NCBI GenBank assembly: GCA_964441065.1
Contig: CAYTWD010000001.1
Span: forward strand, 5,975 to 69,974
Source of the DNA: an uncultured Candidatus Peribacteria bacterium
GTDB lineage: Bacteria; Patescibacteriota; Gracilibacteria; UBA1369; 2-02-FULL-48-14
DNA length: 64,000 nucleotides
Reading direction: 5' to 3'
Every line of letters begins with the position of its first letter. The stretch's first letter is position 1. The position numbers and the translations under genes were made by a program. The notes beneath the pieces are model-generated. The model did no database searches, had not been told where the DNA came from, and saw only the letters and a program-made list of their open reading frames with translations. Below are positions 7,158 through 47,245 of the stretch, piece by piece.

Positions 7158-7233
7158 GGGTCGGTAGCTCAGTTGGTAGAGCAACAGCCTTTTAAGCTGA
7201 TGGTCCCGGGTTCGATTCCCGGCCGACCCACCA
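7158..7233 (+). tRNA. tRNA-Lys (anticodon UUU), CCA encoded
   Basis: Cloverleaf read by hand. The acceptor arms are GGGTCGG and CCGACCC, the anticodon loop is CTTTTAA, the T-arm is CCGGGTTCGATTCCCGG, and the 3' end is ACCA. Confidence 0.9.
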
Positions 7234-9122: not shown

Positions 9123-9197
9123 GGTCCCATCGTCTAGCGGTTAGGACACCGGATTCTCATTCCGGTAACAGGGGTTCGATTCCCCTTGGGACTACCA
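9123..9197 (+). tRNA. tRNA-Glu (anticodon CUC), CCA encoded
   Basis: The acceptor arms are GGTCCCA and TGGGACT, the anticodon stem-loop is CCGGA-TTCTCAT-TCCGG, and the T-arm is AGGGGTTCGATTCCCCT. The overall sequence resembles canonical bacterial tRNA-Glu. Confidence 0.9.
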
Positions 9198-16908: not shown

Positions 16909-16910
16909 TT

Positions 16911-31340: not shown

Positions 31341-32390
31341 ATGTTACCTGAAAACGAATCACTTAATTTTGAAGAAACAATCACAGAAATTGAATTACAA
31401 CTTCAAAGAGCGCCAGAGAGAAGTTCAACTGTCGAATCAATCAATGCTTTACATGAGAAAAGAAAGGCTGCAATTGCAAAACTAATGAAACCTGAGGAGG
31501 CGAGAGCAATTTTCCTCGACACCTTAATTGAAGCTAAAGAAAGTTTTGAAAGAGCAACTTTAGCTGTGGATATTGGTGATACTTATCGAAGAGAAGGAAC
31601 TCCTGAAAGTTATGAAGCGGCGGAGAAAATTTTTGAAACGGTGTCTACGACAATTGAGAAAGGTAATGGATTTGAGTCCACGATAGTCGATATAAACAGA
31701 TATGTTGCTCAAGCACTTTTATATTTTTCGAGAGATTCAAAATCTCAACCAAACGAAGCCGGAATGGCACTACTCAAAGAAGCCGCAAATGCCTCAATAG
31801 TTCTTTTGGAAAGCGGGAAGAAAGATATTTTGTCCTCAGAATTTGGGCGAAATACTCTTTCTCGCGCTATTACATTCCTTTCAAGCTACGCGATAAGAAT
31901 GGGCGACATGGCTACATTTACGGAATCAGCGGCAAATGAAAAAAAATACGGATTAGAACCAAAAAATCCGCACGATAAAGGGAACAGAGTCAATTCACTA
32001 GCGATTGCCCATCTTGACATGGTTAAGCCGGAGATGAGTGACGAGCAGAAGAGAGATCTTTTGAAGAATGCACTGCAGTATGCCAGCGAAGCCGATATGT
32101 GCTACCTTAACGCACAATCTAATGCAGGTTACGCCGCTGCAATTTTGGCACGACTGACCAAGCTCAGAATTTTTGCCGCGAAATTTAAATATAATTTGGA
32201 TCGTAACCTTACACAGACTTACATGGAGGGTGAACTAAATACACTAGGTCAGTACATCGCAAAATATTCGCAAACAGTACAACCGGACGCCCTTCGTGGA
32301 AGTTTTGAGATTCTCTCTAAAGAACTTGAAGACAGTGGCTGCAAGCATATTCGAGACGAACTCAAAACTATCTTAAATTTGCAATCATAA
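31341..32390 (+). CDS. hypothetical all-helical cytoplasmic protein
   Basis: 349 aa with no recognisable motif. It has its own promoter and sits inside the glycan island. Confidence 0.4.
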   Translation: MLPENESLNFEETITEIELQLQRAPERSSTVESINALHEKRKAAIAKLMKPEEARAIFLDTLIEAKESFERATLAVDIGDTYRREGTPESYEAAEKIFETVSTTIEKGNGFESTIVDINRYVAQALLYFSRDSKSQPNEAGMALLKEAANASIVLLESGKKDILSSEFGRNTLSRAITFLSSYAIRMGDMATFTESAANEKKYGLEPKNPHDKGNRVNSLAIAHLDMVKPEMSDEQKRDLLKNALQYASEADMCYLNAQSNAGYAAAILARLTKLRIFAAKFKYNLDRNLTQTYMEGELNTLGQYIAKYSQTVQPDALRGSFEILSKELEDSGCKHIRDELKTILNLQS

Positions 32391-32409: not shown

Positions 32410-33411
32410 ATGGAAAATATGCTTTCATTTCTAGACAACAAGTCAATTTTAGTAACGGGTGGAACAGGCTCGTTCGGTAAGAATTTTATAAGATTCCTTC
32501 TTGATAATTCAAAAGCGAAAAGAATTGTTGTTTTCAGTAGAGATGAATTCAAGCATTTCCAAATGCAAAAAGAATTCACTGATCCAAGACTTCGATTTTT
32601 TATTGGCGACATTAGAGACAAAGAAAGATTGATGAGAGCTTTCAAAAATGTGGATATTGTTGTGCACGCGGCGGCTTTGAAGCACGTTCCGATGTTGGAA
32701 TATAATCCTTTTGAAGCGGTTAAAACAAATATTTTGGGAACGCAAAACGTGATTGACGCGGCCATTGATTGCGGTGTTAAAAAAGTTCTTTTGATTTCAA
32801 CAGATAAAGCGGCTCTTCCTGCGAATTTATACGGATCAACAAAACTTTGCGCCGAAAAACTTTTCATCGCGGGAAATTTCTATTCTCCTGAAACAACAAA
32901 ATTTGCCGTTGTTAGATACGGAAATGTAATTGGAAGTCGTGGAAGTATTATTGAGACTCTACTTTCTCAACCCGATATTAAGAAAATTACAATTACAGAT
33001 TTGGAAATGACTCGTTTTTGGCTGAAAATTGAGGAAAGTTTCCAATTGGTTTGCTTCGCTTTGGAACAGATGGAAGGCGGAGAAACTTTCATTCCAAAAA
33101 TGCCTTCAATGAAAATCGTGGATATGTTCGATGCGATTGTACCTAACGCGGAAAAAGAAATAATTGGAATTCGACCGGGAGAAAAAATGCACGAAATTTT
33201 GCTAACCGAGCAAGAATCTGTGCGTGCAATTGAGCTGGCAAAATACTTTGTTGTCTTGCCTGAATTCAAAATCTCACCGGCCTACGACTACGAAAAATAC
33301 ACAAAAATGCGAATTGGAAATCACAAGAAATTTGAGTACAGCAGCGATAGAAATGACAAGTGGTTAACTAAAGAAGATTTGTCAAAAATCATAAAAGAAT
33401 TAATCATCTAG
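32410..33411 (+). CDS. pseB: UDP-N-acetylglucosamine 4,6-dehydratase (inverting), PseB/FlaA1-like
   Basis: 333 aa. Contains LVTGGTGSFGK, the HAAALKHVP motif and STDKAALPANLYGSTK, followed at a 1-nt gap by a DegT aminotransferase. Confidence 0.8.
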   Translation: MENMLSFLDNKSILVTGGTGSFGKNFIRFLLDNSKAKRIVVFSRDEFKHFQMQKEFTDPRLRFFIGDIRDKERLMRAFKNVDIVVHAAALKHVPMLEYNPFEAVKTNILGTQNVIDAAIDCGVKKVLLISTDKAALPANLYGSTKLCAEKLFIAGNFYSPETTKFAVVRYGNVIGSRGSIIETLLSQPDIKKITITDLEMTRFWLKIEESFQLVCFALEQMEGGETFIPKMPSMKIVDMFDAIVPNAEKEIIGIRPGEKMHEILLTEQESVRAIELAKYFVVLPEFKISPAYDYEKYTKMRIGNHKKFEYSSDRNDKWLTKEDLSKIIKELII

Positions 33412-33412
33412 C

Positions 33413-34513
33413 ATGATTCCCTACGGACGACAGTCAATTGATGAAAGCGACATTCAAGCTGTTGTTTCAGTTCTAAAAGGCGATTTTTTAACTCAAGGCC
33501 CCTCGGTTTCCGAATTTGAAAAGGCTCTTTGCGATTTTACCGGTTCAAAATTTGCGGTCGCGGTTTCAAACGGGACAACCGCGCTTCATTTGGCTTATTT
33601 GGCCGCAGGAATTTCACAAGGCGATGAACTTATAACGACCCCAAACACATTTGTTGCCACGGCAAATATGATGATTCTTTGTGGCGCAAAACCGGTTTTC
33701 TGCGATATCCGACTCGACACTTACAATATTGATGAAGAAAAAATTGAAGCTCTTATTACTCCGAAAACAAAGGCGATAGTTGCGGTGGATTTTGCGGGTC
33801 AACCATGCGAATGGAATCGACTTCATGAAATCGCCCAAAAACATAATTTGATTTTGATTGACGATGCCGCGCATTCACTTGGCGCGACTTATAAAGGCAG
33901 AAAATCCGGAACTTTGGCGAACTTGTCCACTTTAAGTTTTCATCCTGTTAAATCAATCACAACGGGTGAGGGTGGAGCGGTGTTAACCGATAACGAAGAC
34001 ATGTATAAAAAATTAAAATCAATGCGAAGCCACGGAGTCGCAAAAAATGAAAAAGGCTTCAATGTTATGACTGAAATGGGCTTCAATTATCGAATCACTG
34101 ACATACAATGTGCACTGGGAAACAGCCAGCTTAAACGACTAAATGAATTCATTGCAAAAAGAAGAAAACTTGTGGAAATTTATAAAAAAGAACTCGCAAA
34201 TGTTGATGGAATTATTTTACCGAATGAACTCGATGGCAATTTATCTTCATGGCATATTTTTGTAATTCGAGTCAAAGATCCAAACAAACGTTACGCTCTT
34301 CATGAATTTCTAAAAACAAAAGAAATTCAGTCGAATTTTCACTATCCGACTGTTTACGGACATCCTTATTATCGCCAAAACGGTTACGCAAATACCGCAC
34401 TCCCAAGCGCGGATACTTATGAAAAAACTTCTCTAACAATCCCACTTTATTTTGATTTAAAAGAAGAAGAGGTGACTTTGATTTGCGATTCGATTAAACT
34501 TTTTATGAAATGA
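33413..34513 (+). CDS. pseC: DegT-family aminotransferase, PseC-like
   Basis: 366 aa. Starts IPYGRQSIDESDI and contains the PLP-Lys motif SFHPVKSITTGEGG. Confidence 0.75.
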   Translation: MIPYGRQSIDESDIQAVVSVLKGDFLTQGPSVSEFEKALCDFTGSKFAVAVSNGTTALHLAYLAAGISQGDELITTPNTFVATANMMILCGAKPVFCDIRLDTYNIDEEKIEALITPKTKAIVAVDFAGQPCEWNRLHEIAQKHNLILIDDAAHSLGATYKGRKSGTLANLSTLSFHPVKSITTGEGGAVLTDNEDMYKKLKSMRSHGVAKNEKGFNVMTEMGFNYRITDIQCALGNSQLKRLNEFIAKRRKLVEIYKKELANVDGIILPNELDGNLSSWHIFVIRVKDPNKRYALHEFLKTKEIQSNFHYPTVYGHPYYRQNGYANTALPSADTYEKTSLTIPLYFDLKEEEVTLICDSIKLFMK

Positions 34514-35205
34514 TACTGAAAAACAAGAAAATTTTGGCATTCTTCGCACATCCGGATGATGAAACTCTCGGAGCCGGAGGAACAATCTCAAAACTTGCAA
34601 AAGCCGGCAACGAAATTTTTGTTGCCATTCCCGGTGCGGGTGTTTATGCGCGCAGAAATAAAACTGATGATAAAAAAATGAAAAATGAAAAAAATGCACT
34701 CTCAAAACATTTTGCTGAAGCAATGAAAATTCTTGGAGTGAAGTCGTCGAATATTTTTACCGGATCTTTCCCAGATAACGAAATGGACAAATGCAGTCGT
34801 TTGGAATTGAATCACTGGCTTGAAGATGTTTTGGGAAAAGTAAAACCTGATATTATTTTCACTCATCATAGATTCTGCACAAACATTGATCATCAATATT
34901 GCCATGAGGCCGCTGTTGTTGCCGCAAGACCGGGCACAAACAGCCATATCGTGGTAATCGCCTCTGAAATCCCATCAAGCACCGGTTATTTGAAGCCAAC
35001 AATGTGGGAGCCAAACTTCTATGTTGAACTTTCAAAAAGCGACCTTGAAAACAAAGTCAAAGCGATGATGGCTTACAAAAATGAAGTGCGAAAAGATCCA
35101 CATCCTCGAAGTCCTGAAGTTCTTCGAGCACTCGCAAAAGTTCGCGGGAGCGAATCCGGCTTCAACTTTGCAGAAGCTTTTATGATTTTGAGAGACTTCG
35201 CTTAA
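34510..35205 (+). CDS. PIG-L/LmbE-family N-deacetylase
   Basis: Contains AFFAHPDDETLGAGGTI and a later HxxH-containing region. The start overlaps the pseC stop in an ATGA arrangement. Confidence 0.8.
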   Translation: MILKNKKILAFFAHPDDETLGAGGTISKLAKAGNEIFVAIPGAGVYARRNKTDDKKMKNEKNALSKHFAEAMKILGVKSSNIFTGSFPDNEMDKCSRLELNHWLEDVLGKVKPDIIFTHHRFCTNIDHQYCHEAAVVAARPGTNSHIVVIASEIPSSTGYLKPTMWEPNFYVELSKSDLENKVKAMMAYKNEVRKDPHPRSPEVLRALAKVRGSESGFNFAEAFMILRDFA

Positions 35206-35777
35206 AAGCTCGGTCCAAAAGCTTTCTTATGTTTTTCGTAGAGGTCTTTGTAATACTCCTCTCTTAAAATCGCCATTCTCACAGTGTCATAGTATTTGCT
35301 ATTTCTATAAATATCATTCACGAGCACTCCTTCTTTTTTGAAACCAGCGTTTGTGTAAGCGCCTTCCGCCGCTTTATTTTCTGATGTATATCCCAAGAAA
35401 AGTCTTTGTAAATTTAACCTGTCAAATCCGTAAAAAGACAGCATTTCAATTGTTTCCGTTCCGTAACCTTTGCCCCAAAAAGATTTTTCACCAATCAAAA
35501 TTCTCACTTCGGCTTTTCGCGCGGTGAAATGAATTTCGTAAAGCCCGGCGTAACCAATTGCTTTGCCACTCTCTTTTTCACTCACCATGAATACGCAATT
35601 TTTTTCCGAATTAATATCTGCATCGAGCATTTTTTCAACCTGTTCCATAGTCATCGGTCTTTGACCGCTAAACATGTGAGCGGTAACATTTCCGTCGTTT
35701 AACCATGAGGCGATTTTTTCATAATCGGTCTTTTCAACAGGACTTAAAACTAATCTATTCGATTCTAAAAATGTCAT
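35202..35777 (-). CDS. GNAT N-acetyltransferase (RimJ/RimL-like; PseH candidate)
   Basis: 191 aa. Contains FWGKGYGTE and AEGAYTNAGFKKEG. Confidence 0.75.
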   Translation of the reverse strand: MTFLESNRLVLSPVEKTDYEKIASWLNDGNVTAHMFSGQRPMTMEQVEKMLDADINSEKNCVFMVSEKESGKAIGYAGLYEIHFTARKAEVRILIGEKSFWGKGYGTETIEMLSFYGFDRLNLQRLFLGYTSENKAAEGAYTNAGFKKEGVLVNDIYRNSKYYDTVRMAILREEYYKDLYEKHKKAFGPSF

Positions 35778-36409
35778 GATTTTTCTATTTTAATTATAAA
35801 TTTTTTCCCATTCTTCATAAAGAAAGCTGGGTATCTTTCATTGTCGCAAACTCTTAGTAATGGCAATAATTTTTTTAGCGGCATATTGATATCAAGTTCG
35901 CTGTCTTTTGGTGTTCTTTTTTTATAATAAGTGGCTTTCCCAATCTGTTTTTTCCCTCTAACATTCGGATATTTATCTATAAATTTTAGCAGTAATTTTA
36001 TGCTAATTTTCCCCTGCGCATCTTTCAATTCAGAATTGAGTTCATCTCCATTAAAGTGCAATTTTTCCTGAAAGTAAATCACACCCGAGTCAATTTCATC
36101 AGCCGCTTCGATGAGCGAAACCGGAATATCTTTCTTGCCCCCCAAAATTTGCCAAGTTAAAGGCGACCAACCTCGTCCTTTTGGCAAAGCACTTTCATGC
36201 ACAACAAGATTATGTTTGTTCAATTTTAAAATTTTACTATCAAGTTTTTTTTCACAACCGAGTAAAATACAAATATCGCCTGATTTTATCTCATCTGCAT
36301 GATTCAAAAGCTGACAACTGTGTCCACGTTTATTCAGAGTGCCACGTAAGTCTTCGGCATAAGGCATAATGAAGCTATTTTTATTGTCCACCAGAATAGT
36401 AATTTTCAT
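35774..36409 (-). CDS. formyltransferase-domain protein (sugar N-formyltransferase candidate)
   Basis: 211 aa. Contains the HESALPKGRGWSPLTWQILGG motif and an IDSGVIY segment, matching the Fmt/PurN N-terminal fold. Confidence 0.7.
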   Translation of the reverse strand: MKITILVDNKNSFIMPYAEDLRGTLNKRGHSCQLLNHADEIKSGDICILLGCEKKLDSKILKLNKHNLVVHESALPKGRGWSPLTWQILGGKKDIPVSLIEAADEIDSGVIYFQEKLHFNGDELNSELKDAQGKISIKLLLKFIDKYPNVRGKKQIGKATYYKKRTPKDSELDINMPLKKLLPLLRVCDNERYPAFFMKNGKKFIIKIEKS

Positions 36410-37323
36410 ACCATTTTATTAATTTCCAAGACTACATTTTCAGTAGCATTTTGCACCATTTTTAGCTTTTTGGCAAGAGGTTTCTCATCAATAAGTTTTT
36501 TTAGCGCGTCGGCCAAATCTTCTTTTTTGTAAACAGCCTTACTGATTCCCATTTTATTTGTAATTAGCGGATCTTTAATATTTAAACCCGGCTGATAACT
36601 CAAAGTTTTTCTACCGCAAACTGAAGCCTCAAAAAGTGCCATTGAATTCATTCCAATAACTAAAAATGAATTATCAATTAAACTTTTCGCATTTTCCTCA
36701 GTCATGCTGAATTTTCCTTCCAAAAATTCCTCATATTTCTCTCTATTTTTTGTTGTGGGGTGAAGTTTTATTTTTAAATCTTTATCAATTTTAAGTTTCT
36801 TCCAAACATCTTCAATATCCTTCAAAATTTCAAATTCATTCATTCCCAAATTATTTTCAAGTTCACTAAACGGTTGTGAAAAAAACACCGCAAAATCACC
36901 CTCAGATTTCAACTCCTTAAAAGAATCAAAATGAGGATTACCCGTGACAACGATCATATCGGGATTAAAACCCTCTTTTATCATTTCATCTTTTGCAAAC
37001 TCATCCATTACAAAAATTTTATCCGGCATCGCGTTTATAAATCTAACCTTATAATTTACCCAAAAATCCAAAACCGCCGCGCAGGGAATCCCAATTTTTT
37101 TTGCGATCCTTGTGAATCTTTTGTCCAAACTTTCATTTCCCAAACTCGTTCCGCACAAAACAAAATCAGGCTTCTCCGATTTTAAAATCTTCTCAATTTC
37201 TTCATTTGATAAAATATCTTTATGACTGAAAATCTTCCCGCCCATTTTTTCGTAAACCGGCTTGATTGAATCCATTCCACCGGGATTGTCTGCCGCAAAA
37301 ACAACTTTAATTTTTCGATTCAT
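36406..37323 (-). CDS. hypothetical protein, possibly GT-B-like fold
   Basis: 305 aa. It overlaps both neighbouring genes and I recognise no diagnostic motif. Confidence 0.3.
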   Translation of the reverse strand: MNRKIKVVFAADNPGGMDSIKPVYEKMGGKIFSHKDILSNEEIEKILKSEKPDFVLCGTSLGNESLDKRFTRIAKKIGIPCAAVLDFWVNYKVRFINAMPDKIFVMDEFAKDEMIKEGFNPDMIVVTGNPHFDSFKELKSEGDFAVFFSQPFSELENNLGMNEFEILKDIEDVWKKLKIDKDLKIKLHPTTKNREKYEEFLEGKFSMTEENAKSLIDNSFLVIGMNSMALFEASVCGRKTLSYQPGLNIKDPLITNKMGISKAVYKKEDLADALKKLIDEKPLAKKLKMVQNATENVVLEINKMV

Positions 37324-38605
37324 ATTCTTTTAATTCAGATACGTTTTTTTCGATTTTTTCAATAGCCGAAGTAAAATCATCAATATCTGAAAAACTTTGT
37401 GGTGGCTGACAGATTGCTGTGAAAAGCAGTTCTTCAAAATACATTTTTTCAGTGAAAGAACAAATTCCTTTTTGATAAGAAACATTGCTAGGAAATTCAC
37501 TTGAAACAAAAGGGAACTGTGAATTCGGAAAAATTCTTTTCTCCTGATAAATCGGCAAAAGATAGAGAGGTTTTTGATAACCTTCATTCAATTTATAACC
37601 CTCGGCAGCCATAGCCAACGCAAAAGTTTTTCTCTTTATTCCGATTTTCTCACTAAAAAATCTAAAGCCGTAAATATAATAAACATGTTTGGAATTTTCA
37701 GCATTTGAAGGATGATTTAACCATTCAAATCGCGAAAGTTTTTCACTCAAATAATCCGCCAATTTTATTCTTTCTGCATTTAATTTATCCAGTTTTTTAA
37801 ATTGTTCAATCGCAACCGCCGCGTGCAATTCACTCATTCTAAAGTTACCGCCAATCAGTGCTTCAAACTCGGCTCCGGCATCAACCATGTCGTCCATAAC
37901 AACTTCGCCATGATTTCGATAAAGCTGAGCTCTAAGCGCCATTTTATCATCATTGCACACCAAAACGCCGCCCTCGCCACACTGAACGACTTTGTGAATA
38001 TTAAAACTAAAAACTCCAATGTCTCCGATAGTTCCGGCAAATTTTCCTTTGTAAGTGGCGCCCATGGCCTGCGCGCTGTCCTCAATTATTTTCAGCCCGT
38101 GTTTCTTTGCAAGCTCCAAAATTTTTTCAAAATTCGGAGTTCTACCCATCAAATTCACAACATAAATAGCCTTGGTTTTTTCACTAATATTTTTTTCGAC
38201 AGAATCCGGATCAAGACAAAAAGTCTCATCTATATCAGCAAAAACCGGAATCGCATTATTAAATAAAACCGAAGTTGGTGTCGCGCTCATTGTAAAAGGC
38301 GGACAAATTATTTCATCCCCCGGCCCAACACCAATCGCCACAATAGCCGCTTGCAATGCGCTTGTTGCCGAGTTAAAAGTCACCGAATGTTTTACTCCAA
38401 AATAAGAATTGAAAAGACTTTCAAGTTCTTGAACATATTTACCGCCTAAAAATTTTGCTCCGGCTCTACCTAAAAAATCCGAAAGCAGTAATTTCTCGTC
38501 AAAAATACTATTCACGGCATTTTTCTCTTCATCTCCAATTGTGTAATAAGCGGGAATAGGGCTAGTTCTTACCGGCTTTCCTCCTAAAAGTGCTAATTCA
38601 GACAT
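37307..38605 (-). CDS. DegT/DnrJ/EryC1/StrS-family aminotransferase (long form)
   Basis: 432 aa. PLP-Lys motif FSFNIHKVVQCGEGG. Confidence 0.85.
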   Translation of the reverse strand: MSELALLGGKPVRTSPIPAYYTIGDEEKNAVNSIFDEKLLLSDFLGRAGAKFLGGKYVQELESLFNSYFGVKHSVTFNSATSALQAAIVAIGVGPGDEIICPPFTMSATPTSVLFNNAIPVFADIDETFCLDPDSVEKNISEKTKAIYVVNLMGRTPNFEKILELAKKHGLKIIEDSAQAMGATYKGKFAGTIGDIGVFSFNIHKVVQCGEGGVLVCNDDKMALRAQLYRNHGEVVMDDMVDAGAEFEALIGGNFRMSELHAAVAIEQFKKLDKLNAERIKLADYLSEKLSRFEWLNHPSNAENSKHVYYIYGFRFFSEKIGIKRKTFALAMAAEGYKLNEGYQKPLYLLPIYQEKRIFPNSQFPFVSSEFPSNVSYQKGICSFTEKMYFEELLFTAICQPPQSFSDIDDFTSAIEKIEKNVSELKEYESKN

Positions 38606-38606
38606 G

Positions 38607-39584
38607 TTAATTATTATTCATACAATTCGCCACGAATTTTAACGTTTTCAAGGCATCTTCACCAGAGCAAAGAGGCTCTGAACTCGTTTTTATACATTCC
38701 AAAATGCAATTCACGGAATCCATCATAAACTCCCCATCAGGTTTATTTTTGAATGGATATCCGATTTCTTTTAGCTCCTTAAATCCGCTGAAAAGTGAAT
38801 GTTCATCCGTTTCAAAAACAGATATTTCAAAACCATTTTTCTTGAATAAAATCGCGCCCTTTTCACAATAAACACAAAGTTCCAAAATCAAATAATTTTT
38901 ATTATTTTGTGGAGTAAGTGAAAAAATAATTCCGTCTTTAGACTCGGCAACAAAAGCGTAATTCGCATCATTTTCGTAACGAGATTCTATGCTTGTTTTT
39001 ATTGATGCAACTTTAGAAAATTCCGACTCGCAAAAAAACTCCGCCAAATTAATTAAATGTGATGCGTTTGTAATAAGTCCATCTCCATAATGACCTGTAA
39101 TTTTTTGAATTTTCCCCATTTTTTCGCTCTTCAAATAGTCTGCAATTTCCCGATAAGCCGGGCTAAATCTTCTCATGTAATTCACTTGCAAAATCACTTT
39201 TTTTTCACGACAAATCCTCACCATTTTCTCAGCCTCCTCAATATTTTTTGCAATCGGCTTTTCACATAAAATCGCAAGCGGTTTCGCATTCACGCATTTT
39301 TCAAGAATTTCCGCGTGACTTTCAACTTGAGTGCAAATGCTGATTATTTCAGGCTTTTCTTTTTCCAGCATCTCTTCGTAATTTTTATAAAGACCGGAAA
39401 TTTTCCATTTCGCTCCCGCTTTTTCCAATTTTTCCGAATCTGTATCGCATAGTGCAACCAACTCAATTTCAGAATTTTTTGTGTAAGCACCTGCGTGACT
39501 TGCAACAAAGATTCTTTTTGGATCGTCGTCGTATTCACTGCCGATTCTTCCACAGCCTATAATCGCGGCTTTAAATTTTTTCAT
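38607..39584 (-). CDS. Gfo/Idh/MocA-family oxidoreductase
   Basis: Contains MKKFKAAIIGCGRIGS (Rossmann fold) and a CEKPIA motif. The ORF is open up to 39617, but the ATG at 39584 fits the family N-terminus. Confidence 0.8.
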   Translation of the reverse strand: MKKFKAAIIGCGRIGSEYDDDPKRIFVASHAGAYTKNSEIELVALCDTDSEKLEKAGAKWKISGLYKNYEEMLEKEKPEIISICTQVESHAEILEKCVNAKPLAILCEKPIAKNIEEAEKMVRICREKKVILQVNYMRRFSPAYREIADYLKSEKMGKIQKITGHYGDGLITNASHLINLAEFFCESEFSKVASIKTSIESRYENDANYAFVAESKDGIIFSLTPQNNKNYLILELCVYCEKGAILFKKNGFEISVFETDEHSLFSGFKELKEIGYPFKNKPDGEFMMDSVNCILECIKTSSEPLCSGEDALKTLKFVANCMNNN

Positions 39585-39676
39585 CAATTTATTAAATTCG
39601 GAGAGAATATATCTCATTTGACCCTGTTTGACAAAGAGAAGATAATAATGTTAATTTCAATTTACTAAGTTAAAAA

Positions 39677-40732
39677 ATGCGAAGTGAAGATATAAATATT
39701 GAAGGTTTAAAAATTGGGCCAAATAATAGTCCTTGTGTTGTCGCTGAACTTTCTTGCAATCACAACCAAAGTATTGAAACCGCGTTGAGAATTGTTGATG
39801 CGGCGGCTGATGCGGGTTGTCAGGCAATAAAACTTCAAACATACAGAGCTGACACGATGACAATCCGGTCCAATAAACCCGATTTTTTGATTAAAGGTTC
39901 AAATCCCGATTGGGAAGGAAAAACTCTTTACGATCTTTATGAAAAGGCATTCACACCTTGGGAATGGCATGAGGAACTCTTCAAAAGAGCAAAAGAAAGA
40001 GGAATGATCGCCTTCAGCACACCTTTTGACCTGGAAGCCGTTGATTTTTTGGAAAAACTCAATGTCCCAGCATATAAAATTGCATCTTTCGAAAATAATT
40101 GGGTTGAACTAATTGATCGCGTTGCTCGCACAAAAAAACCGATAATTATTTCAACCGGCGTTTCTGATCTTTCAATAGTTGAACGAGCCGTGAAAACAGC
40201 CAGAGATGCGGGAAATGAACAAATCATACTACTAAAATGTACAAGCAGTTACCCTGCGGATCCTAAAAATTCCAACCTCGCGACAATTCCTGCTTTGGCG
40301 GAAAAGTTTGATGTTCAAGTCGGTATTTCAGATCACACTCTTGGGATTGGAGCTTCAATTGCGGCCGTTGCACTTGGCGCGACAATGATTGAAAAGCATC
40401 TTATTTTAGATAGAAAAGATGAAAGTTTTGATTCTTCATTTTCAATGAATCCTGATGAAATGAAACAACTGGTAGTTGAGTCTGAAAGAGCATGGCAGAG
40501 TGTTGGGCAAGTTTTTTACGGACTGACTCAGGGTGAAGAAAATTCACTTCGATTCAAGAGATCAATTTATGTGGTTGAGCCAATAAAAGCCGGCGAAACT
40601 TTTACCCGAAAAAACACGAGAGTTATCAGGCCGGGTTATTCGCTTGAGCCACGTCTTCACGGCGAAATTTTGGGTAAAGTGAGTAAGAAAGATTTGGAAA
40701 TAGGAGATAGAATTGATGAAAATTCCTTCTGA
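39677..40732 (+). CDS. pseI: nonulosonic acid synthase (NeuB/PseI family)
   Basis: 351 aa. Contains VVAELSCNHNQS, AYKIASFE, ISDHTLG and a C-terminal SAF/antifreeze-like domain. Confidence 0.85.
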   Translation: MRSEDINIEGLKIGPNNSPCVVAELSCNHNQSIETALRIVDAAADAGCQAIKLQTYRADTMTIRSNKPDFLIKGSNPDWEGKTLYDLYEKAFTPWEWHEELFKRAKERGMIAFSTPFDLEAVDFLEKLNVPAYKIASFENNWVELIDRVARTKKPIIISTGVSDLSIVERAVKTARDAGNEQIILLKCTSSYPADPKNSNLATIPALAEKFDVQVGISDHTLGIGASIAAVALGATMIEKHLILDRKDESFDSSFSMNPDEMKQLVVESERAWQSVGQVFYGLTQGEENSLRFKRSIYVVEPIKAGETFTRKNTRVIRPGYSLEPRLHGEILGKVSKKDLEIGDRIDENSF

Positions 40733-41409
40733 TGAATACAGAAAACATAGTCATTTTGAGTCGCAGGCAAGTTAATAAAGATGATTTCAATAATTGGGAT
40801 CCTCCGGCGGGTTTTTCCAAACATTTTATTGGCGATGAAAGTGCATTAACATTTGAAAATCTACAAAAACTAAATCCAAAATTTATTTTTATTCCGCATT
40901 GGTCAAAAATTATTGATGATAAAATAATTGAAAATTTTAAATGCGTAGTTTTCCACATGACCGATTTACCATTCGGACGAGGAGGAAGTCCGCTTCAAAA
41001 TCTGCTTGTTCGAGGAATTTACAAAACCAAAATTTCAGCAATTTTAGCAGTAAAAGAACTCGATGCCGGCCCGATTTATTTGAAAAAAGATTTTGATATT
41101 TCCGAAGGTTCCGCAGAAGAAATATACTCTAGAGCTTCAAAAATTATTTTTGAAATGATTGACGAAATTTTACGAAAAAATCTAAATTCCACTCCTCAAA
41201 CGGGAGAAATTACAGTTTTTAAACGCAGAACTCCGGCGGAAAGTGAAGTTCCGGAAAGTCTGAATGAAAGACAACTTTACGATTTTATTAGGATGTTGGA
41301 CGCTCCCGGCTATCCACATGCTTTTAAAATACAAAACGGCAAAAAAATCGAATTCAAAAACGCGCGTTTTGAAAACGACAAACTTATTTTCGACGAAATT
41401 TCTCAATGA
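40732..41409 (+). CDS. formyltransferase-like protein
   Basis: 225 aa. Contains HMTDLPFGRGGSPLQNLLVRG and LDAGPIY. The start overlaps the neuB stop (TGATG). Confidence 0.6.
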   Translation: MNTENIVILSRRQVNKDDFNNWDPPAGFSKHFIGDESALTFENLQKLNPKFIFIPHWSKIIDDKIIENFKCVVFHMTDLPFGRGGSPLQNLLVRGIYKTKISAILAVKELDAGPIYLKKDFDISEGSAEEIYSRASKIIFEMIDEILRKNLNSTPQTGEITVFKRRTPAESEVPESLNERQLYDFIRMLDAPGYPHAFKIQNGKKIEFKNARFENDKLIFDEISQ

Positions 41410-42176
41410 GAAACTCGCTTACGTTTTGATTTAACTCCTTTTTTTGCGAGTTCGTCATGGTAGGCCTTATTACCAGTATTGTGCATTTTATTTATTTCAG
41501 CAATTTCCGGATTTTTCTTCACAAACTCAAGAAGTTCCAACATCGATACGTCTCCCGCCAATTTCTCAAAAACCTGAGAAACAAATTCAAAATCCTCAGG
41601 ATAATCCACAGTCCATCTGTGGTGAGATAAATCCTCATGATAATCGGCATTTTTTATCTTAAATTCCTCAGGATGTTCGTAAATATAAGCAAAAGCCAAT
41701 TCTCTCCAAAACGCTTCTTTGATATTTTCCCAAACTTTTTTCATTGCCGAAACTTTTATAACTTCCACATCTAAACCATGTGGCAAAGTTGGACTGAAAT
41801 TATTGCTGACTTGATCAAAATTGCCATCTAAAAAAATCTTAATTACCCGGTCAACTTCATCAGGATCAACCAAAGGACAATCCGCCGTAATTCTCACAAT
41901 TGCGTCGGCTCCGAACTTGATTGCCGTTTGATAAAGTCTATCAACAAGATCATTTTCATCGCCCGCGTAATAATCAATTCCATTTTCTTTAGCGAATTCA
42001 ATAATCGGTTTATTTATCTCATCATTCGCGGTTGCAATTACAACTTTATCAACAAGTTTCGCCTTTTTAAAACGCTCATACAAATAAAGCATCATCGGTT
42101 TTCCGGAAATTTTTTTCAAAACTTTTCCGGGAAGTCTTGTCGAACCCATTCTCGCCTGAATAATTCCTAAAATCAT
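41403..42176 (-). CDS. CMP-sugar-type cytidylyltransferase (SpsF/PseF-like)
   Basis: 257 aa. Contains IIQARMGSTRLPGK and RITADCPLVDP. Confidence 0.75.
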   Translation of the reverse strand: MILGIIQARMGSTRLPGKVLKKISGKPMMLYLYERFKKAKLVDKVVIATANDEINKPIIEFAKENGIDYYAGDENDLVDRLYQTAIKFGADAIVRITADCPLVDPDEVDRVIKIFLDGNFDQVSNNFSPTLPHGLDVEVIKVSAMKKVWENIKEAFWRELAFAYIYEHPEEFKIKNADYHEDLSHHRWTVDYPEDFEFVSQVFEKLAGDVSMLELLEFVKKNPEIAEINKMHNTGNKAYHDELAKKGVKSKRKRVSH

Positions 42177-42979
42177 AAGCTTTTGATTATAAGTTTCGCG
42201 GCCTCTTCTGCTCCGTTTAAAAGATTTACATCTTGCGCTCTGTCTTTGTCCAGAAGTTCGACAATTTTATCTTCCAAATTTGTAAAATTAACAATGGTTT
42301 TTGAATCGCCTTCCAGCAAAATAACGTTTTCCAATTTCTTTAAATACTCAACATTATTTTTTTGATTTTCAACCTGTTCAAAAATAAATTGTGGACACCC
42401 GATTGCCGCCAATTCCATGGCGGTTTGACCGGCCGCTCCAAATGCAAATTTTGATTCACGCATCAGTTTATAAACATCTTTTGGCGAAACAAAATCAAGC
42501 CCGACAACATTAATTTTCTGAACAAATTTCGAAGCGATCGGCGTAAATTTATCCAAAAAGTTTTTGCATTTTGTTTCATCATAATATGACTTTAAAAAAA
42601 CCACCGCCTCATTCTTCACTTTTACATTTTGATCTCCAAAATACTTAACTCTCAAACAAAAATTTCTCAAAATTAAGCCGGCTTTTTCTCCAATAAAATC
42701 GATTTTATGATCTTCGAATGCCGCCAAATTCGCCCTCAAAACATTCTTGGGAAATTTCTCAATTCTATACGAATCAACAACAACAAAATCGCCATTTTCA
42801 CACTTTCCATATGACACTTTTTTTCGATAAGAATCCTCCAAAAATTCAGAAAATATTTTTTCGTTACAATCAATTCGCACTTCCTGATCCAAATCCAATA
42901 AAGCCATTGTTAATGCGGCAATTCTTGAAACGTGTCCCAAGCCGATTTCTCCTCCGAAGTCCGGAATTAATGTGATCAT
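42173..42979 (-). CDS. pseG: PseG/SpsG-like UDP-sugar hydrolase (GT28-like C-terminal domain)
   Basis: 268 aa. N-terminal GGEIGLGHVSRIAAL matches the PseG G-x-G-H-x-x-R signature. The gene is flanked by two cytidylyltransferase genes. Confidence 0.5.
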   Translation of the reverse strand: MITLIPDFGGEIGLGHVSRIAALTMALLDLDQEVRIDCNEKIFSEFLEDSYRKKVSYGKCENGDFVVVDSYRIEKFPKNVLRANLAAFEDHKIDFIGEKAGLILRNFCLRVKYFGDQNVKVKNEAVVFLKSYYDETKCKNFLDKFTPIASKFVQKINVVGLDFVSPKDVYKLMRESKFAFGAAGQTAMELAAIGCPQFIFEQVENQKNNVEYLKKLENVILLEGDSKTIVNFTNLEDKIVELLDKDRAQDVNLLNGAEEAAKLIIKSL

Positions 42980-43710
42980 ATTGGTTTCTGTTCAATGTGA
43001 GAGTTAATTTCAAAATATTCCGGATGTTCTTCAAAAACTTTCAAAACGTCATCCATGAGAAAATCAGCTTTTTTCGGCCATAATTCTTCATAAATTTTCT
43101 TAATCAATTCATAATCTTCAGCCGTGTCCAATGTCCATCTGTGCATTGAAAGATCTTTTCCATTCAAAACACCTCCGGCAAAACTTGCGGTTTTTTGTCT
43201 TATGTAGGGCGTAACATGCTCTTTTTCAGAATCCGATTCAGCATTTTTTGCAGCGTCTTCAAGTAAGGAAAACGGGAAAACTTCCACGTCCAATCCTCTC
43301 GGAAAAGTTCGTCCATCAACCGGAATATTTGAAGTATATGTTCCAGACTTCAGCTCTTCTTCAATAACTTTATCCACAATTTCCGGGTCAATAAGCGGGC
43401 AGTCGGAAGTAATTCTAACAACAAGATCCGCAGATTCTTTTTTTGCCGCTTCAAAATAACGAGAAAGCACATCATTTTGAGAACCGCGATAAATTCCAAC
43501 TTTTGAATCTTTCAAATTTTCAACAAATTTTTCCAAAACGTCGTCTTCAGCATTCACAGTGATTGCAATCACAATTTTATTTATTTTTTTGCATTTTTTT
43601 ACTCTGTTAATCACATGCCAAAGAACAGGCCTACCGCAAAGATCCATAAGAATTTTTCCGGGCAATCTGCTCGAACCCATTCTTGTTTGAATTATGCAAA
43701 CCGTATTCAT
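42976..43710 (-). CDS. CMP-sugar-type cytidylyltransferase (SpsF/PseF-like), paralog of 41403-42176
   Basis: 244 aa. Contains IIQTRMGSSRLPGK and RITSDCPLIDP. Confidence 0.75.
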   Translation of the reverse strand: MNTVCIIQTRMGSSRLPGKILMDLCGRPVLWHVINRVKKCKKINKIVIAITVNAEDDVLEKFVENLKDSKVGIYRGSQNDVLSRYFEAAKKESADLVVRITSDCPLIDPEIVDKVIEEELKSGTYTSNIPVDGRTFPRGLDVEVFPFSLLEDAAKNAESDSEKEHVTPYIRQKTASFAGGVLNGKDLSMHRWTLDTAEDYELIKKIYEELWPKKADFLMDDVLKVFEEHPEYFEINSHIEQKPI

Positions 43711-43775
43711 ATCATGCGGATTTTAATGGCTTTTCAGCTCCAGATCAAGTATAGTGCTCCAGCTAACAAAATAAA

Positions 43776-45233
43776 ATGAAGGGACTTTTCTTCTTACAAA
43801 GAAATTTCGCAAAATTTGGCCACTATATCGCGCTTGGTTTAATGAAAGAGCATGGAATGACCGAAGCTGCGGCATTTATTCAAGGTGTTAAAGCAAAAAA
43901 TTTTCTTGATTCACAGCATGATTTTAAATATTGCACTGAAGTTTTTGAAAATGAAATTCATGAAAAAGCAAAGCATGGCAAACCGGACCACGAGTTTTTA
44001 AATAAAATCGAAAAAGAATATGGAATTCCTAATTTATGGCCTTTTTATTTGGCCGATAGAATTTTGGCAATGGATCATCCGCATTTTGAATATGCCTATA
44101 CTCCAAAATATGACTACGATAGAACTTTAGTCATGATCCAAGAACGTTTTCGCGCGATAATCAAAATGTTAGAAGAGGAAAAACCAGATTTTATAATTTT
44201 ATCTTTGGTCGGCTGTATCAGCTCAATGATTATGTACAAAGTTGCAAAAAAAATGGGAATTAAAACTTATATTTTTGACCACACAAAGCTAAAAGATTAT
44301 GTCACAATGACAGAAAATGAAGAGTTCTCGGCGGCGAATAAACTTTTTGATGAAAAAGGATTTTCAGAAAGTCACATGAAAGAAGCCGAAGAAATTTTAA
44401 AATCTTATCGTGAGAAACCCGCTCCACGAAAATGGATGGAAACCTCAGGAAAAATCGGACTTTTACACGCGATTTTCAAGGAAGTTTTGGGCTTTGTAAA
44501 ATACGTAAAAGCTCATTATTCGGAGGGTCGTAATGGTGATTTTACAGAGCAATCGCCTTTTGATTACTTAAGAAATAAATTTGTGAAATTTTCTCGAAGG
44601 CTCAGCGCTCACGGTTTGGTTTATGGAAAAATGAATGAAAATGAAGACTTTGTATTTTTTCCACTTCATTTCGAACCGGAAAGAGCAACGATGTTTTTGG
44701 CGCCTTATTTCACGGATCAAATCGCCTTAGTTCACAACGTCGCAAAAGCTCTCCCGATTACAACAAAACTTTACGTTAAAGATCATCCAGCGATGATAAA
44801 TTTCCGCCCAAGATCTTATTACGATCGTTTAAAAGAAATGCCGAATATCGTTTTCATTGATCCGAATGTCTCATCTTCAAAAATAATTCCTAAAGCCAAA
44901 TGCGTCGCGACAATAACAGGAACTGCCGGGATGGAAGCAATTTTATTGGGCAAGCCTGTCATAACTTTCGGTGAGATTTTTTACAACAAATTATCCTTTG
45001 TTTATCACGTCACGGATCTCACAAAATTGGCAGATGTCTTTAAGAAAGTTTTCAAAGAAAACAAGCATGACGACAAAGAATTGATCAATTTTATTTCCTG
45101 TATTTTGGCAACTTCTTTCCCAATAAACTACTTCAAAATTTGGCACGACAGCACTCCGGAACAAATCAAAAACTCAAAAGAAATCGCTGAGTTTATCGAC
45201 TACATTGCTAAGACTGTAGGATTTCGAGCTTAA
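43776..45233 (+). CDS. capsule-polysaccharide-synthesis (KpsS/KpsC-like) family glycosyltransferase candidate
   Basis: 485 aa. FFPLHFEPERA...FTDQ...LYVKDHPAM resembles the PLQ...D.Q...K.HP pattern of the Capsule_synth family. Confidence 0.45.
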   Translation: MKGLFFLQRNFAKFGHYIALGLMKEHGMTEAAAFIQGVKAKNFLDSQHDFKYCTEVFENEIHEKAKHGKPDHEFLNKIEKEYGIPNLWPFYLADRILAMDHPHFEYAYTPKYDYDRTLVMIQERFRAIIKMLEEEKPDFIILSLVGCISSMIMYKVAKKMGIKTYIFDHTKLKDYVTMTENEEFSAANKLFDEKGFSESHMKEAEEILKSYREKPAPRKWMETSGKIGLLHAIFKEVLGFVKYVKAHYSEGRNGDFTEQSPFDYLRNKFVKFSRRLSAHGLVYGKMNENEDFVFFPLHFEPERATMFLAPYFTDQIALVHNVAKALPITTKLYVKDHPAMINFRPRSYYDRLKEMPNIVFIDPNVSSSKIIPKAKCVATITGTAGMEAILLGKPVITFGEIFYNKLSFVYHVTDLTKLADVFKKVFKENKHDDKELINFISCILATSFPINYFKIWHDSTPEQIKNSKEIAEFIDYIAKTVGFRA

Positions 45234-46206
45234 TTCTGTCTTTTTTCGCGCTTAACCTAACAAGTCCTCCAATCGGGAAAGTAAAGAACGGCGTTGTATG
45301 CCCAAAATCTGCATTGGCAATAACCGGTATTAAATCCAGTTCTTTTTTTGACTTTATAATCTTCTTCAAAAGATCCTCGTTCATTCCACTTTGATTGCGG
45401 AAACGTCCAATAACAATACCTCGAACTTTCGCAAAATCGGGAAGGTGAATTATTGACTGTAAATCTCTATCAAAAGTTGCAACATGAGCCTCTTCATCAT
45501 CTTCCAAAAACAAAATACTATTTGCTAAATTCGGCATAAATTCTGTGCCTTGTAACAGGTTTAAACTGCATTGGTTCCCGCCCAAAGAAATTCCCTCGGC
45601 TTCGCCTTCATTAATAAGCCAGTATCCTTCATTCTTTACAAAAATTCTTTTACTTTGATCACATGCAAATCCATCATTACTCCACTCTTGTGATGGCAAA
45701 ACCTCAAAACTCAAATCTTCACAAAGACATTTCTTAAAATACTCCCAAATATAATTAAAACTTTTCTCATTTTTATCTCCAAAGTTCAAAAAATGTGAGC
45801 CCGAATAAGTTACCATTCCGGTTTTCGCATAAATTGCATTTGCAAGCACGGTAATATCTGAAAAACCGCAAAATATTTTCGGATTATTTTTTATAAGTTC
45901 ATAATTTAAATATCTTAATAATTGGTTCGAATTAAAACCGCCAATAACCGTTATAATCATTTTCACATTTTGATCTGCAAAAGCATCATGAATATCCTCG
46001 ATTCGGCTATCAATCGATGAAGATGAAAAATCATCAATCTCATTCACATGTTTGCCAAAACTTAATTTAAAACCCAAGTCAGCAAACCTTTTTGTAGCTA
46101 AATTTTTTACTTCTTCAGCAATCCAAGTAGTCGTTAAACTTCTTGCAGGAGCAATCACCCTGATTTCATCTCCTTTTTTTAGTGTTGTCATGTTTAAAAT
46201 ATACAC
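45208..46206 (-). CDS. LD-carboxypeptidase (peptidase S66, MccF-like)
   Basis: 332 aa. Contains GDEIRVIAPA and the nucleophile motif CGFSDITVL, plus a C-terminal FGHT segment. Confidence 0.75.
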   Translation of the reverse strand: MYILNMTTLKKGDEIRVIAPARSLTTTWIAEEVKNLATKRFADLGFKLSFGKHVNEIDDFSSSSIDSRIEDIHDAFADQNVKMIITVIGGFNSNQLLRYLNYELIKNNPKIFCGFSDITVLANAIYAKTGMVTYSGSHFLNFGDKNEKSFNYIWEYFKKCLCEDLSFEVLPSQEWSNDGFACDQSKRIFVKNEGYWLINEGEAEGISLGGNQCSLNLLQGTEFMPNLANSILFLEDDEEAHVATFDRDLQSIIHLPDFAKVRGIVIGRFRNQSGMNEDLLKKIIKSKKELDLIPVIANADFGHTTPFFTFPIGGLVRLSAKKDRIKLEILQS

Positions 46207-47244: not shown

Positions 47245-47245
47245 T

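Follow-up and report, generated by a model that had tools for sequence, protein, structure and literature searches.

A predicted composite nonulosonic-acid locus in a Candidatus Peribacteria genome with formyltransferase-fold proteins and a recurring aminotransferase cassette

Which sugar, or sugars, would be made by a pseudaminic-acid gene cluster that carries a second aminotransferase, a second cytidylyltransferase, a deacetylase and two formyltransferase-fold proteins? This question is raised by positions 32410-45233 of a 64-kb window from an uncultured Candidatus Peribacteria bacterium, the window being the whole stretch of 64,000 nucleotides analysed here (contig CAYTWD010000001.1 of GenBank assembly GCA_964441065.1, forward strand, positions 5,975 to 69,974). 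Nonulosonic acids are found on flagella, S-layers, capsules and O-antigens, where they influence recognition by the immune system as well as the attachment of phages. The variety of their N-acyl groups, which includes formyl, free amine, hydroxybutyryl and other forms, is chemically well documented, and the genes responsible are largely unknown. An initial annotation of the window, made without database searches, described the 14 genes as a cluster for a non-canonical, perhaps N-formylated, sugar resembling pseudaminic acid (Pse). Our analysis confirms what it observed and supports a part of what it concluded. The locus is probably a composite one for nonulosonic acids activated with cytidine monophosphate (CMP), in which a Pse core, a layer of N-acyl editing genes, a conserved cassette and a transfer function are combined. 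The gene duplications are best read as serving two activated nonulosonic acids, or one that is further aminated.

The pseudaminic-acid core and a conserved cassette

All 14 open reading frames (ORFs) of the cluster were recovered in the ORF list with translations, and their families are confirmed by Pfam and NCBIfam (Table 1). The genes form five transcription units on alternating strands, with eight of the 14 on the minus strand by the gene list. Stop and start codons overlap at several gene junctions, for example between PseI and FT2 (TGATG), and the start of PIG-L overlaps the stop of PseC. Chance ORFs and pseudogenes are ruled out, as every one of the 14 has significant family matches or conserved orthologues.

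Judged from profile scores, the core is of the pseudaminic-acid type and not of the legionaminic-acid (Leg) or sialic-acid (Neu) type, because PseB, PseC and PseI exceed the curated NCBI equivalog cut-offs and the Leg and Neu models score far lower. The LegB model gives only 69.3 bits on PseB, which contains the motifs TGGTGSFG and YGSTK, the LegC model gives 251.2 bits on PseC, and the NeuB_NnaB model gives 277 bits on PseI (cut-off 399.65). A legionaminic or sialic-acid pathway for the core is ruled out by these scores, in agreement with the Pse-type NeuB homologue and Pse-like product first proposed. No second NeuB-family gene was found in the 64-kb window by tblastn.

The claim that all six steps of Pse synthesis have candidates in the cluster stands for PseB, PseC and PseI, and is weaker for the other steps. 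The N-acetyltransferase GNAT fails as a PseH equivalog (43.3 bits, cut-off 93.1) and is nearer to SpeG-type enzymes, and neither cytidylyltransferase is a PseF equivalog (CT1 37.5 bits and CT2 25.7 bits, cut-off 205.7). The PseG-like protein u268 aligns only with the C-terminal 62 positions of the PseG model TIGR03590, with a weak score (E 4e-11, 43 bits, cut-off 153.55), and a PDB sequence search with it gave nothing useful. In related loci, numbered here with the letter L, u268 shares 28% identity with the Glyco_tran_28_C gene located after PseB-PseC in L009, at the position of PseG, and 40% with a gene of L010. We infer that u268 may serve as the PseG-type hydrolase.

The second DegT-family aminotransferase (DegT2) was used to survey other genomes. 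One genome per GTDB species was scanned with a DegT2 alignment, which yielded 91 relatives, including 53 loci with full 10-kb flanks; orthology in these loci is the best BLAST match of stop-to-stop ORFs to the window proteins. The relatives come from Patescibacteria, DPANN archaea, Omnitrophota, Desulfosporosinus, Nostoc/Calothrix, Solirubrobacterales, Planctomycetes and Desulfobacterota. Among the 53 full-flank loci, a cytidylyltransferase is present in 52, the Gfo/Idh/MocA oxidoreductase (GFO) in 50, NeuB in 47, u305 in 47 and a GNAT homologue in 39. In 61 of 71 loci u305 is the direct same-strand neighbour of DegT2, and in 55 of 70 GFO adjoins DegT2. Thus DegT2, GFO, u305, one cytidylyltransferase and GNAT constitute one conserved cassette, which is linked to NeuB and cytidylyltransferase genes. 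This arrangement fits well with the earlier suggestion of two different activated nonulosonic acids. No functional description of Gfo/Idh/MocA enzymes in nonulosonic-acid clusters was found in the literature searched.

The cassette occurs both together with the Pse core and apart from it. Near-complete copies of the window gene set are found on three contigs (L009, L010 and L011), with identities of 54-71% for DegT2, 34-62% for GFO, 39-50% for u305, 58-63% for GNAT, 43-63% for CT1 and 37-53% for CT2. L009 and L010 also share PIG-L (41-42%), FT1 (54-62%) and u268 (28-40%) with the window; FT2 is 46% identical in L010, and K485 is 35-44% identical in L009 and L011. Stand-alone operons of the order GNAT-CT-GFO-DegT2-u305-NeuB (CT, cytidylyltransferase) are present in L034, L037 and L026, where there is no PseB or PseC orthologue. 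The NeuB proteins of these operons fit the NeuB model better than the PseI model, with scores under both cut-offs. In Nostoc paludosum (L060), PseB, PseC, a cytidylyltransferase, a Glyco_tran_28_C PseG, GNAT and PseI (506 bits) are followed by CT-GFO-DegT2-u305, and no second NeuB is in range of this cassette. A separate observation concerns the gene directly after the Nostoc cassette (L060:12223-15762), which encodes a 1,180-residue protein with a polysialyltransferase-like region and a GT41 domain. This protein may join a nonulosonic-acid transferase to a domain resembling O-GlcNAc transferase (GlcNAc, N-acetylglucosamine).

Among the cassette proteins, u305 had been left unassigned. On the evidence of its AlphaFold2 (AF2) model, which has a predicted local distance difference test score (pLDDT) of 95.4, u305 is a divergent 2-epimerase-fold protein. 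All of its best Foldseek matches are epimerases, of the WecB, NeuC and WbpI types (TMq 0.62-0.73, E down to 9e-13), and the Pfam Epimerase_2 score of 22.3 bits, under the cut-off of 30.6, marks it as a divergent member. It contains the motifs VTGNPHFD (VTGNPxFD in the family) and LHP, of which H188 and P189 are invariant. A word-indexed search found 54 homologues, one of them fused to a CTP_transf_3 domain (P0269), and a full profile search gave 2,741 representative clusters (50% identity) at E≤1e-30. A PDB sequence search with u305 gave nothing useful. Weak matches to polyST and BFO_1060 models and the His-Pro (HP) motif had made a sialyltransferase-like nonulosonic-acid transferase a candidate; the fold search contradicts this, the best folds all being 2-epimerases. 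No similarity that would point to paralogy with the PseG-like u268 was found.

DegT2 carries its pyridoxal-phosphate lysine within FNIHK. It scores 211 bits on the PseC model (cut-off 423.5) and is 29% identical to PseC. Its best PDB relatives (E 1e-55 to 1e-50) are perosamine synthase, inosose aminotransferases and entry 5K8B (E 5e-55), which is KdnA, the transaminase for 8-amino-3,8-dideoxy-manno-octulosonic acid (Kdo8N). DegT2 scores 190 bits against both perosamine synthase and the Kdo8N transaminase and 132 bits against WbpE; WbpE and PseC are clearly more distant. GFO, the true start of which may be an internal Met near 39584, has inositol 2-dehydrogenase and DgpA as its best PDB relatives, and matches an archaeal UDP-GlcNAc 3-dehydrogenase weakly (91 bits). 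Orthologues of GNAT accompany the DegT2 cassette, in 39 of the 53 full-flank loci as stated above, and this acetyltransferase is grouped with the cassette in Table 1.

The two cytidylyltransferases, which are 37% identical and both resemble the uncharacterised PDB entry 6OEW, can be divided between core and cassette only by context. CT2 is 49% identical to the cytidylyltransferase of the Pse-type flagellin island of Crassaminicella, and among the cytidylyltransferases that adjoin PseB/PseC orthologues, 20 of 21 are CT2-like. Across the loci surveyed, 55 cytidylyltransferase genes lie within 1.6 kb of cassette genes. Two or more cytidylyltransferases are present in 23 of 32 loci with a PseB orthologue, versus 5 of 21 without (Fisher p = 8e-4, for loci that are not phylogenetically independent). 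Because PseB loci more often carry two such genes and the PseB/PseC neighbours are CT2-like, there is roughly one cytidylyltransferase per pathway, which supports the idea of two activated sugars. CT2 is tentatively assigned as the PseF equivalent, and CT1, also tentatively, as the activating enzyme of the cassette.

Table 1. Features of the nonulosonic-acid cluster and of its surroundings in the window
Feature	Description	Position	Strand	Profile or structure match
PseB	UDP-GlcNAc 4,6-dehydratase (inverting)	32410..33411	+	TIGR03589 442.7 bits (cut-off 407.75)
PseC	C4 aminotransferase	33413..34513	+	TIGR03588 434.9 bits (cut-off 423.5)
PIG-L	PIG-L/LmbE-family N-deacetylase	34510..35205	+	PF02585 84.7 bits (cut-off 28.2)
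GNAT	GNAT (Acetyltransf_3) N-acetyltransferase, cassette-associated	35202..35777	-	PF13302 85.8 bits
FT1	Formyltransferase-fold protein without catalytic Asn	35774..36409	-	PF00551 33 bits
u305	305 residues, divergent UDP-GlcNAc 2-epimerase (Epimerase_2) fold	36406..37323	-	Fold search of model
DegT2	432-residue DegT-family aminotransferase, cassette anchor	37307..38605	-	PF01041 284 bits
GFO	Gfo/Idh/MocA oxidoreductase	38607..39617	-	PF01408 92 bits
PseI	Pseudaminic acid synthase	39677..40732	+	TIGR03586 464.8 bits (cut-off 340.25)
FT2	Formyltransferase-fold protein of the 1ZGH/PF21553 family without catalytic Asn	40732..41409	+	PF21553 55.6 bits, PF00551 31.9 bits
CT1	CTP_transf_3 cytidylyltransferase, SpsF/6OEW type	41403..42176	-	PF02348 106 bits; PDB 6OEW E 1.7e-40
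u268	268 residues, PseG-like, UDP-sugar hydrolase candidate	42173..42979	-	TIGR03590 (PseG)
CT2	CTP_transf_3 cytidylyltransferase	42976..43710	-	PF02348 105 bits; PDB 6OEW E 2.6e-40
K485	KpsC/KpsS-like GT-B glycosyltransferase, candidate nonulosonic-acid transferase	43776..45233	+	PF05159 (Capsule_synth) 40.8 bits (cut-off 20)
tRNA-Lys(UUU)	Transfer RNA	7158-7233	+	
tRNA-Glu(CUC)	Transfer RNA	9123-9197	+	
SLH protein	1,292 residues, three N-terminal SLH domains, directly upstream of glycan locus	9560-13438	+	
S-adenosylhomocysteine hydrolase and SAM synthetase	Gene pair	15658-18044	-	
Methyltransferase	In glycan locus	21381-22061		
UDP-sugar 6-dehydrogenase		22122-23420		
Wzx-type flippase	Within glycan locus	28924-30387		
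296-residue protein	N-terminal GINT1 domain	30378-31268	-	E 4e-40
349-residue protein	Immediately upstream of PseB	31341-32390	+	
LD-carboxypeptidase	Peptidase_S66	45208-46206	-	
GDP-sugar genes	Apparent second sugar pathway	46285-53773	+	GDP-mannose 4,6-dehydratase 427.5 bits (equivalog cut-off 415)
Methyltransferase	In glycan locus	54791-55423		

Formyltransferase-fold proteins and putative N-acyl editing genes

FT1 and FT2 belong to dedicated families that are found in nonulosonic-acid clusters. FT2 is closely related to PDB entry 1ZGH (E 1.9e-59 over residues 26-221, the segment VVFHMTDLPFGRGGSPLQNL included), and FT1 is a more distant member of the 1ZGH group (E 5.9e-14 to 1ZGH), 32% identical to FT2. 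The AF2 model of FT1 has a pLDDT of 95.3 and shows a complete formyltransferase fold. Its fold matches (TMq 0.70-0.80) are 1ZGH, which is the best at 0.80, ArnA, WbkC, VioF, Rv3404c, HypX and the hydrolase domain of 10-formyl-tetrahydrofolate (THF) dehydrogenase. A housekeeping Fmt or PurN is ruled out for either protein: both are short, lie in nonulosonic-acid clusters and have 1ZGH as their closest relative. The one paper found to cite 1ZGH is an unrelated one.

The canonical Asn-His-Asp triad of sugar N-formyltransferases, Fmt and ArnA is incomplete in both proteins. When aligned to ArnA and Fmt with HMMER, FT1 and FT2 both retain the catalytic His and Asp and have Val at the Asn position. 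This substitution is a family feature. All 120 FT1 homologues compared keep H71 and D107, and two positions before the His they have Val (115) or Ile (five); the 120 FT2 homologues compared all keep H75 and D111, with Ile, Val, Leu, Met or Cys at the corresponding position. Loss of a catalytic residue is what the initial annotation had itself named as speaking against two sugar formyltransferases, and for the Asn this loss is found. The folate-loop motifs HESALPKGRG and HMTDLPFGRG resemble HxSLLPxxRG, and the SxLPxxRG-type loop is invariant in both families. The invariance of the His, the Asp and the folate-loop motif argues against FT1 and FT2 being dead enzymes, and from these sequence features formyl transfer by them is plausible but unproven.

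The initial annotation had also regarded two such genes in one cluster as notable, which is not supported. At least 1,445 homologues belong to the FT1 family and at least 7,979 (E≤1e-5) to the FT2 family, where 13 of the 120 highest-ranked proteins carry a fused GNAT domain. Both genes occur together with PIG-L in Fodinibius roseus (L007) and in the metagenomic locus L010, among others, so that paired formyltransferase-like genes in one cluster are a recurring arrangement. Formyltransferase genes have been noted before in nonulosonic-acid islands of Geobacillus and Halorubrum, and N-formyl Pse derivatives occur as natural products, among them Pse5Hb7Fo and Pse5Ac7Fo of the Pseudomonas aeruginosa O7/O8 O-antigens.

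The deacetylase PIG-L contains the metal-binding AHPDDE motif, as FFAHPDDETLG, and its best PDB relatives are diacetylchitobiose deacetylases and GlcNAc-malate deacetylases. Orthologues of 35-43% identity are present in all eight FT1- or FT2-anchored loci checked. FT2 orthologues belong to a recurring set of GNAT, FT2 and PIG-L beside PseB, PseC, a cytidylyltransferase and NeuB (L001-L004), to which a sugar-phosphate-isomerase-like gene (AP_endonuc_2) is sometimes added, and FT2 adjoins PIG-L in every FT2-bearing locus examined (L001-L004, L007 and L010). Three Pse-like clusters without any GNAT carry FT1 orthologues of 54-58% identity; one is a flagellin glycosylation island in Crassaminicella indica (L006), and the others belong to Fodinibius roseus (L007) and to a contig from Parcubacteria (L008). 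In these three clusters FT1 is the only candidate N-acyltransferase.

Two further features of such loci were observed. The Pse-like clusters L003 and L008, which bear formyltransferase-like genes and PIG-L, have no recognisable PseG-type hydrolase. In addition, Pse-like clusters (L003, L008, L009, L016 and L019) share a recurring accessory set of a class-III aminotransferase (Aminotran_3) and an aldo-keto reductase, sometimes with a DUF218 or ATP-grasp protein, which is absent from the 64-kb window. This set probably makes or attaches another N-acyl group.

The proposed pathway and its alternatives

In the composite reading that we favour, PseB, PseC, u268, PseI and a cytidylyltransferase, probably CT2, would build the pseudaminic-acid skeleton from UDP-GlcNAc. 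FT1 would acylate the amine made by PseC (the future N7) in place of PseH, the acyl group being most simply formyl. PIG-L would strip the acetyl group inherited from GlcNAc (the future N5), and FT2 would re-acylate the amine thus freed; FT2 is translationally coupled to PseI and has PIG-L as its neighbour in the other genomes examined. Deacetylation followed by re-acylation had been put forward in the initial annotation, and it agrees with the adjacency of FT2 and PIG-L. It also has a precedent in Candidatus Kuenenia, where, as a 2026 preprint reports (10.64898/2026.04.20.719630), a CMP-activated nonulosonic acid with one free amine and one formyl group was measured and linked to a cluster that encodes both a deacetylase and a formyltransferase.

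The cassette, with a cytidylyltransferase that is probably CT1, would oxidise a hydroxyl, transaminate the ketone, N-acetylate the new amine and activate the product. Following the logic of Kdo8N, it could add a third amino group to a nonulosonate, so that a triamino acid results. Flexibacter/Tenacibaculum maritimus (Tenacibaculum maritimum) is known to contain a nonulosonic acid with an 8-amino group. Alternatively, it could produce a second nonulosonate by a dehydratase-free six-step route parallel to that of Leg, in which GFO and DegT2 stand in for the dehydratase and the aminotransferase, with u305 as a hydrolysing 2-epimerase. Under the Leg-parallel route no cassette gene is left without a function, and the stand-alone operons are accounted for. 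Either option would result in two different CMP-sugars in the cell.

K485 would finally move the sugar acid onto a surface glycan. It matches structures of the KpsC β-Kdo transferase (Kdo, 3-deoxy-manno-octulosonic acid; E 6e-6 over about 80 residues) and, weakly, WbbB; it scores 23.7 bits on the KpsS equivalog (cut-off 600) and 35.3 bits on the BFO_1060 family (cut-off 200), and contains the HP motif KDHPAM. Homologues are found in L009 (44%), L028 (44%) and L007. The KpsC and BFO_1060 matches agree with the proposed kinship with CMP-ulosonic-acid transferases, and K485 may plausibly act in sugar-acid transfer, although the scores are weak.

Several points weigh against this composite reading. 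Both FT1 and FT2 are without the triad Asn that is conserved in characterised formyltransferases, and neither a characterised member of either family nor a paper on a nonulosonic-acid N-formyltransferase was found in the literature searched. The window has a single PseI-type NeuB, so that the route through u305 needs a promiscuous PseI or a synthase encoded elsewhere, and in Nostoc the Leg-parallel route likewise depends on a synthase that either differs from PseI or is more promiscuous. If the cassette tailors a finished nonulosonate instead, u305 has no obvious role. PIG-L, FT2 and FT1 are rare among DegT2-anchored loci (8, 5 and 3 of 80, respectively), and the editing genes and the cassette are therefore taken as independent modules, not one pathway. 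The assignment of CT1 and CT2 to pathways comes from adjacency statistics only, and the genes are in tandem in close relatives. Finally, the co-occurrence counts are phylogenetically non-independent, about a dozen loci being from Nostoc.

The missing Asn opens the alternative that FT1 and FT2 are not formyltransferases but have diverged to an activity requiring only the His and Asp, such as another acyl transfer or the hydrolysis of an acyl or nucleotide intermediate, or that they are non-catalytic partners of GNAT or PIG-L. Val or Ile at the Asn position throughout the family, the frequent fusion with GNAT, and close folds that include HypX and the 10-formyl-THF dehydrogenase hydrolase domain, which are not amine formyltransferases, are all in line with such a change, as are L003 and L008, the two FT-bearing Pse-like loci without a recognisable PseG. 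The invariant His, Asp and folate-binding loop argue in the opposite direction, and so do the GNAT-less clusters, which leave FT1 as the sole candidate for the canonical acylation of the C4 amine, and the formylated CMP-nonulosonic acid of Kuenenia. We regard this divergence as somewhat unlikely. If FT1 and FT2 are instead genuine N10-formyl-THF-dependent enzymes, the locus could make a single non-canonical Pse, the main reading of the initial annotation, in which formyl replaces the N-acetyl groups after PIG-L action and the other duplicates are redundant. The formyltransferase fold, the folate-loop motif and the linkage of PIG-L with FT2 agree with this simpler scheme, as do the Kuenenia precedent and the natural N-formyl Pse derivatives. 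The catalytic Asn is nevertheless gone in both families, and the duplicates do not look redundant: CT1 and CT2 are only 37% identical, DegT2 and PseC 29%, and they sit in a cassette that is conserved separately, mostly at loci without FT or PIG-L genes. A single formylated Pse is thus an unlikely product.

The cassette itself could belong elsewhere. GFO, DegT2, GNAT and u305 might constitute a WbpB/WbpE/WbpD/WbpI-like route to a UDP-2,3-diacetamido-2,3-dideoxy hexose or hexuronic acid that is merely co-located with the Pse genes. The four enzyme types mirror that pathway, the fold matches of u305 include WbpI-type 2-epimerases, GFO matches the archaeal UDP-GlcNAc 3-dehydrogenase, although weakly, and a UDP-sugar 6-dehydrogenase is encoded in the window. 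However, the cassette is not independent of nonulosonic-acid genes, as CTP_transf_3 and NeuB accompany it in 52 and 47 of the 53 full-flank loci, and tight GNAT-CT-GFO-DegT2-u305-NeuB operons as well as the u305-CT fusion point the same way. WbpE is also less similar to DegT2 than are perosamine synthase and the Kdo8N transaminase, and WbpD is an acetyltransferase of the left-handed β-helix type, whereas the acetyltransferase of the cassette is a GNAT. Mere co-location of a Wbp-like route is improbable. The composite reading thus retains our preference, and a bolder form of it is possible, which we put forward tentatively. The cassette, with or without GNAT, would then be an undescribed and widely distributed pathway, either to a triamino nonulosonate with the third amino group at C4 or, like that of the T. 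maritimum 8-amino sugar, at C8, or to a new diamino nonulosonate that keeps the 9-hydroxyl and needs no 4,6-dehydratase. FT1 and FT2, for their part, would be the missing Pse/Leg N-formyltransferases, working with a His-Asp dyad.

Genomic setting and comparison with known systems

The cluster is part of a glycan locus that extends from about 13.5 kb to the window end and holds many glycosyltransferases of the GT2 and GT4 types, methyltransferases, one UDP-sugar dehydrogenase and a Wzx-type flippase. Directly upstream of this locus, the protein with three S-layer homology (SLH) domains is likely an S-layer or cell-surface protein, and is a candidate acceptor for the nonulosonic-acid glycan. Further upstream, two tRNA genes flank a DnaJ gene, an ordinary arrangement. 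The S-adenosylhomocysteine hydrolase and S-adenosylmethionine (SAM) synthetase genes adjoin the glycan locus, and may be a local SAM-recycling supply for glycan methylation. Immediately upstream of PseB, the 349-residue protein has no Pfam or NCBIfam match, and the 296-residue protein next to it matches the N-terminal domain of the eukaryotic-type GINT1 (glucosamine inositolphosphorylceramide transferase 1).

On the other side of the cluster, an LD-carboxypeptidase gene, an odd insertion in a glycan locus, separates the nonulosonic-acid genes from GDP-sugar genes, and its 3' end shares 26 bases with the end of K485. The GDP-mannose 4,6-dehydratase gene is followed by genes for an RfbH/PseC-like DegT aminotransferase, a short-chain dehydrogenase/reductase-type epimerase, two GT2 proteins, another DegT protein and a 637-residue protein without a Pfam match. 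This order suggests a second sugar pathway, leading to a GDP-perosamine-like or other 4-amino-6-deoxy sugar. Several cluster genes have their best matches in metagenome-assembled genomes of Patescibacteria (for DegT2, 68% to Peribacteria), a hint at the origin but no proof of it, because glycan genes move horizontally.

The Pse core is ordinary, and clusters with a deacetylase and a formyltransferase have been noticed before. Three features appear undescribed in the literature searched: the absence of the catalytic Asn throughout the FT1 and FT2 families, the epimerase fold of the u305 family, and the conserved GFO-DegT2-u305-cytidylyltransferase cassette with its breadth of occurrence. Three large families, FT1, FT2/1ZGH and u305, which occur almost only in such clusters, meet in one locus. 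The locus is not a one-off but a convenient complete example of common, biochemically uncharacterised gene sets. Assigning functions to FT1, FT2, u305 and the cassette would improve the annotation of thousands of genomes, many from uncultivated lineages, and the enzymes, once assigned, could supply modified Pse or Leg donors.

Compared with the canonical CMP-Pse pathway (PseB-C-H-G-I-F) of Campylobacter jejuni and Helicobacter pylori, the cluster has PseB, PseC and PseI at equivalog level, together with a PseG-like protein and CTP_transf_3 proteins. It differs in having no PseH equivalog, with FT1 and the cassette-linked GNAT as acyltransferase candidates, in cytidylyltransferases of the SpsF/6OEW type and not PseF equivalogs, and in eight extra genes interleaved with the core. 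The Candidatus Kuenenia stuttgartiensis cluster described in the SugarBase preprint (10.64898/2026.04.20.719630) is similar in that a deacetylase and a formyltransferase lie between the dehydratase/aminotransferase genes and NeuB, and in having two cytidylyltransferases, there LegF homologues, and an epimerase-family gene. The likeness is one of described gene content; the Kuenenia cluster is described as Leg-related, whereas that of the window is Pse-type, and the accessible part of the preprint mentions no Gfo/Idh/MocA-DegT pair.

Entry 1ZGH, a structural-genomics 'methionyl-tRNA formyltransferase' of Clostridium thermocellum, is the structural representative of the PF21553-containing FT2 family. 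Its Fmt name is an automatic label: the 1ZGH/FT2 family is without the Asn of true Fmt and ArnA, and is located in nonulosonic-acid clusters, not beside translation genes. K485 resembles GtfS of Tannerella forsythia and KpsC/KpsS (GT107) in its Capsule_synth domain, its HP motif, which GtfS-type enzymes also carry, and its matches to KpsC and to the BFO_1060 model, a family named after the Tannerella nonulosonic-acid transferase gene. Its scores on the BFO_1060 and KpsS models lie far under the family cut-offs (35 vs 200; 23.7 vs 600).

In the Shewanella Kdo8N pathway, an oxidase acts first, followed by the transaminase KdnA and CMP activation. The cassette as proposed here would similarly oxidise, transaminate and cytidylylate an ulosonic acid, which is in line with the match of DegT2 to 5K8B. 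Unlike that pathway, the oxidase here is of the Gfo/Idh/MocA type, the sugar acid would be a nine-carbon one made by NeuB, and the set includes an epimerase-fold protein and a GNAT.

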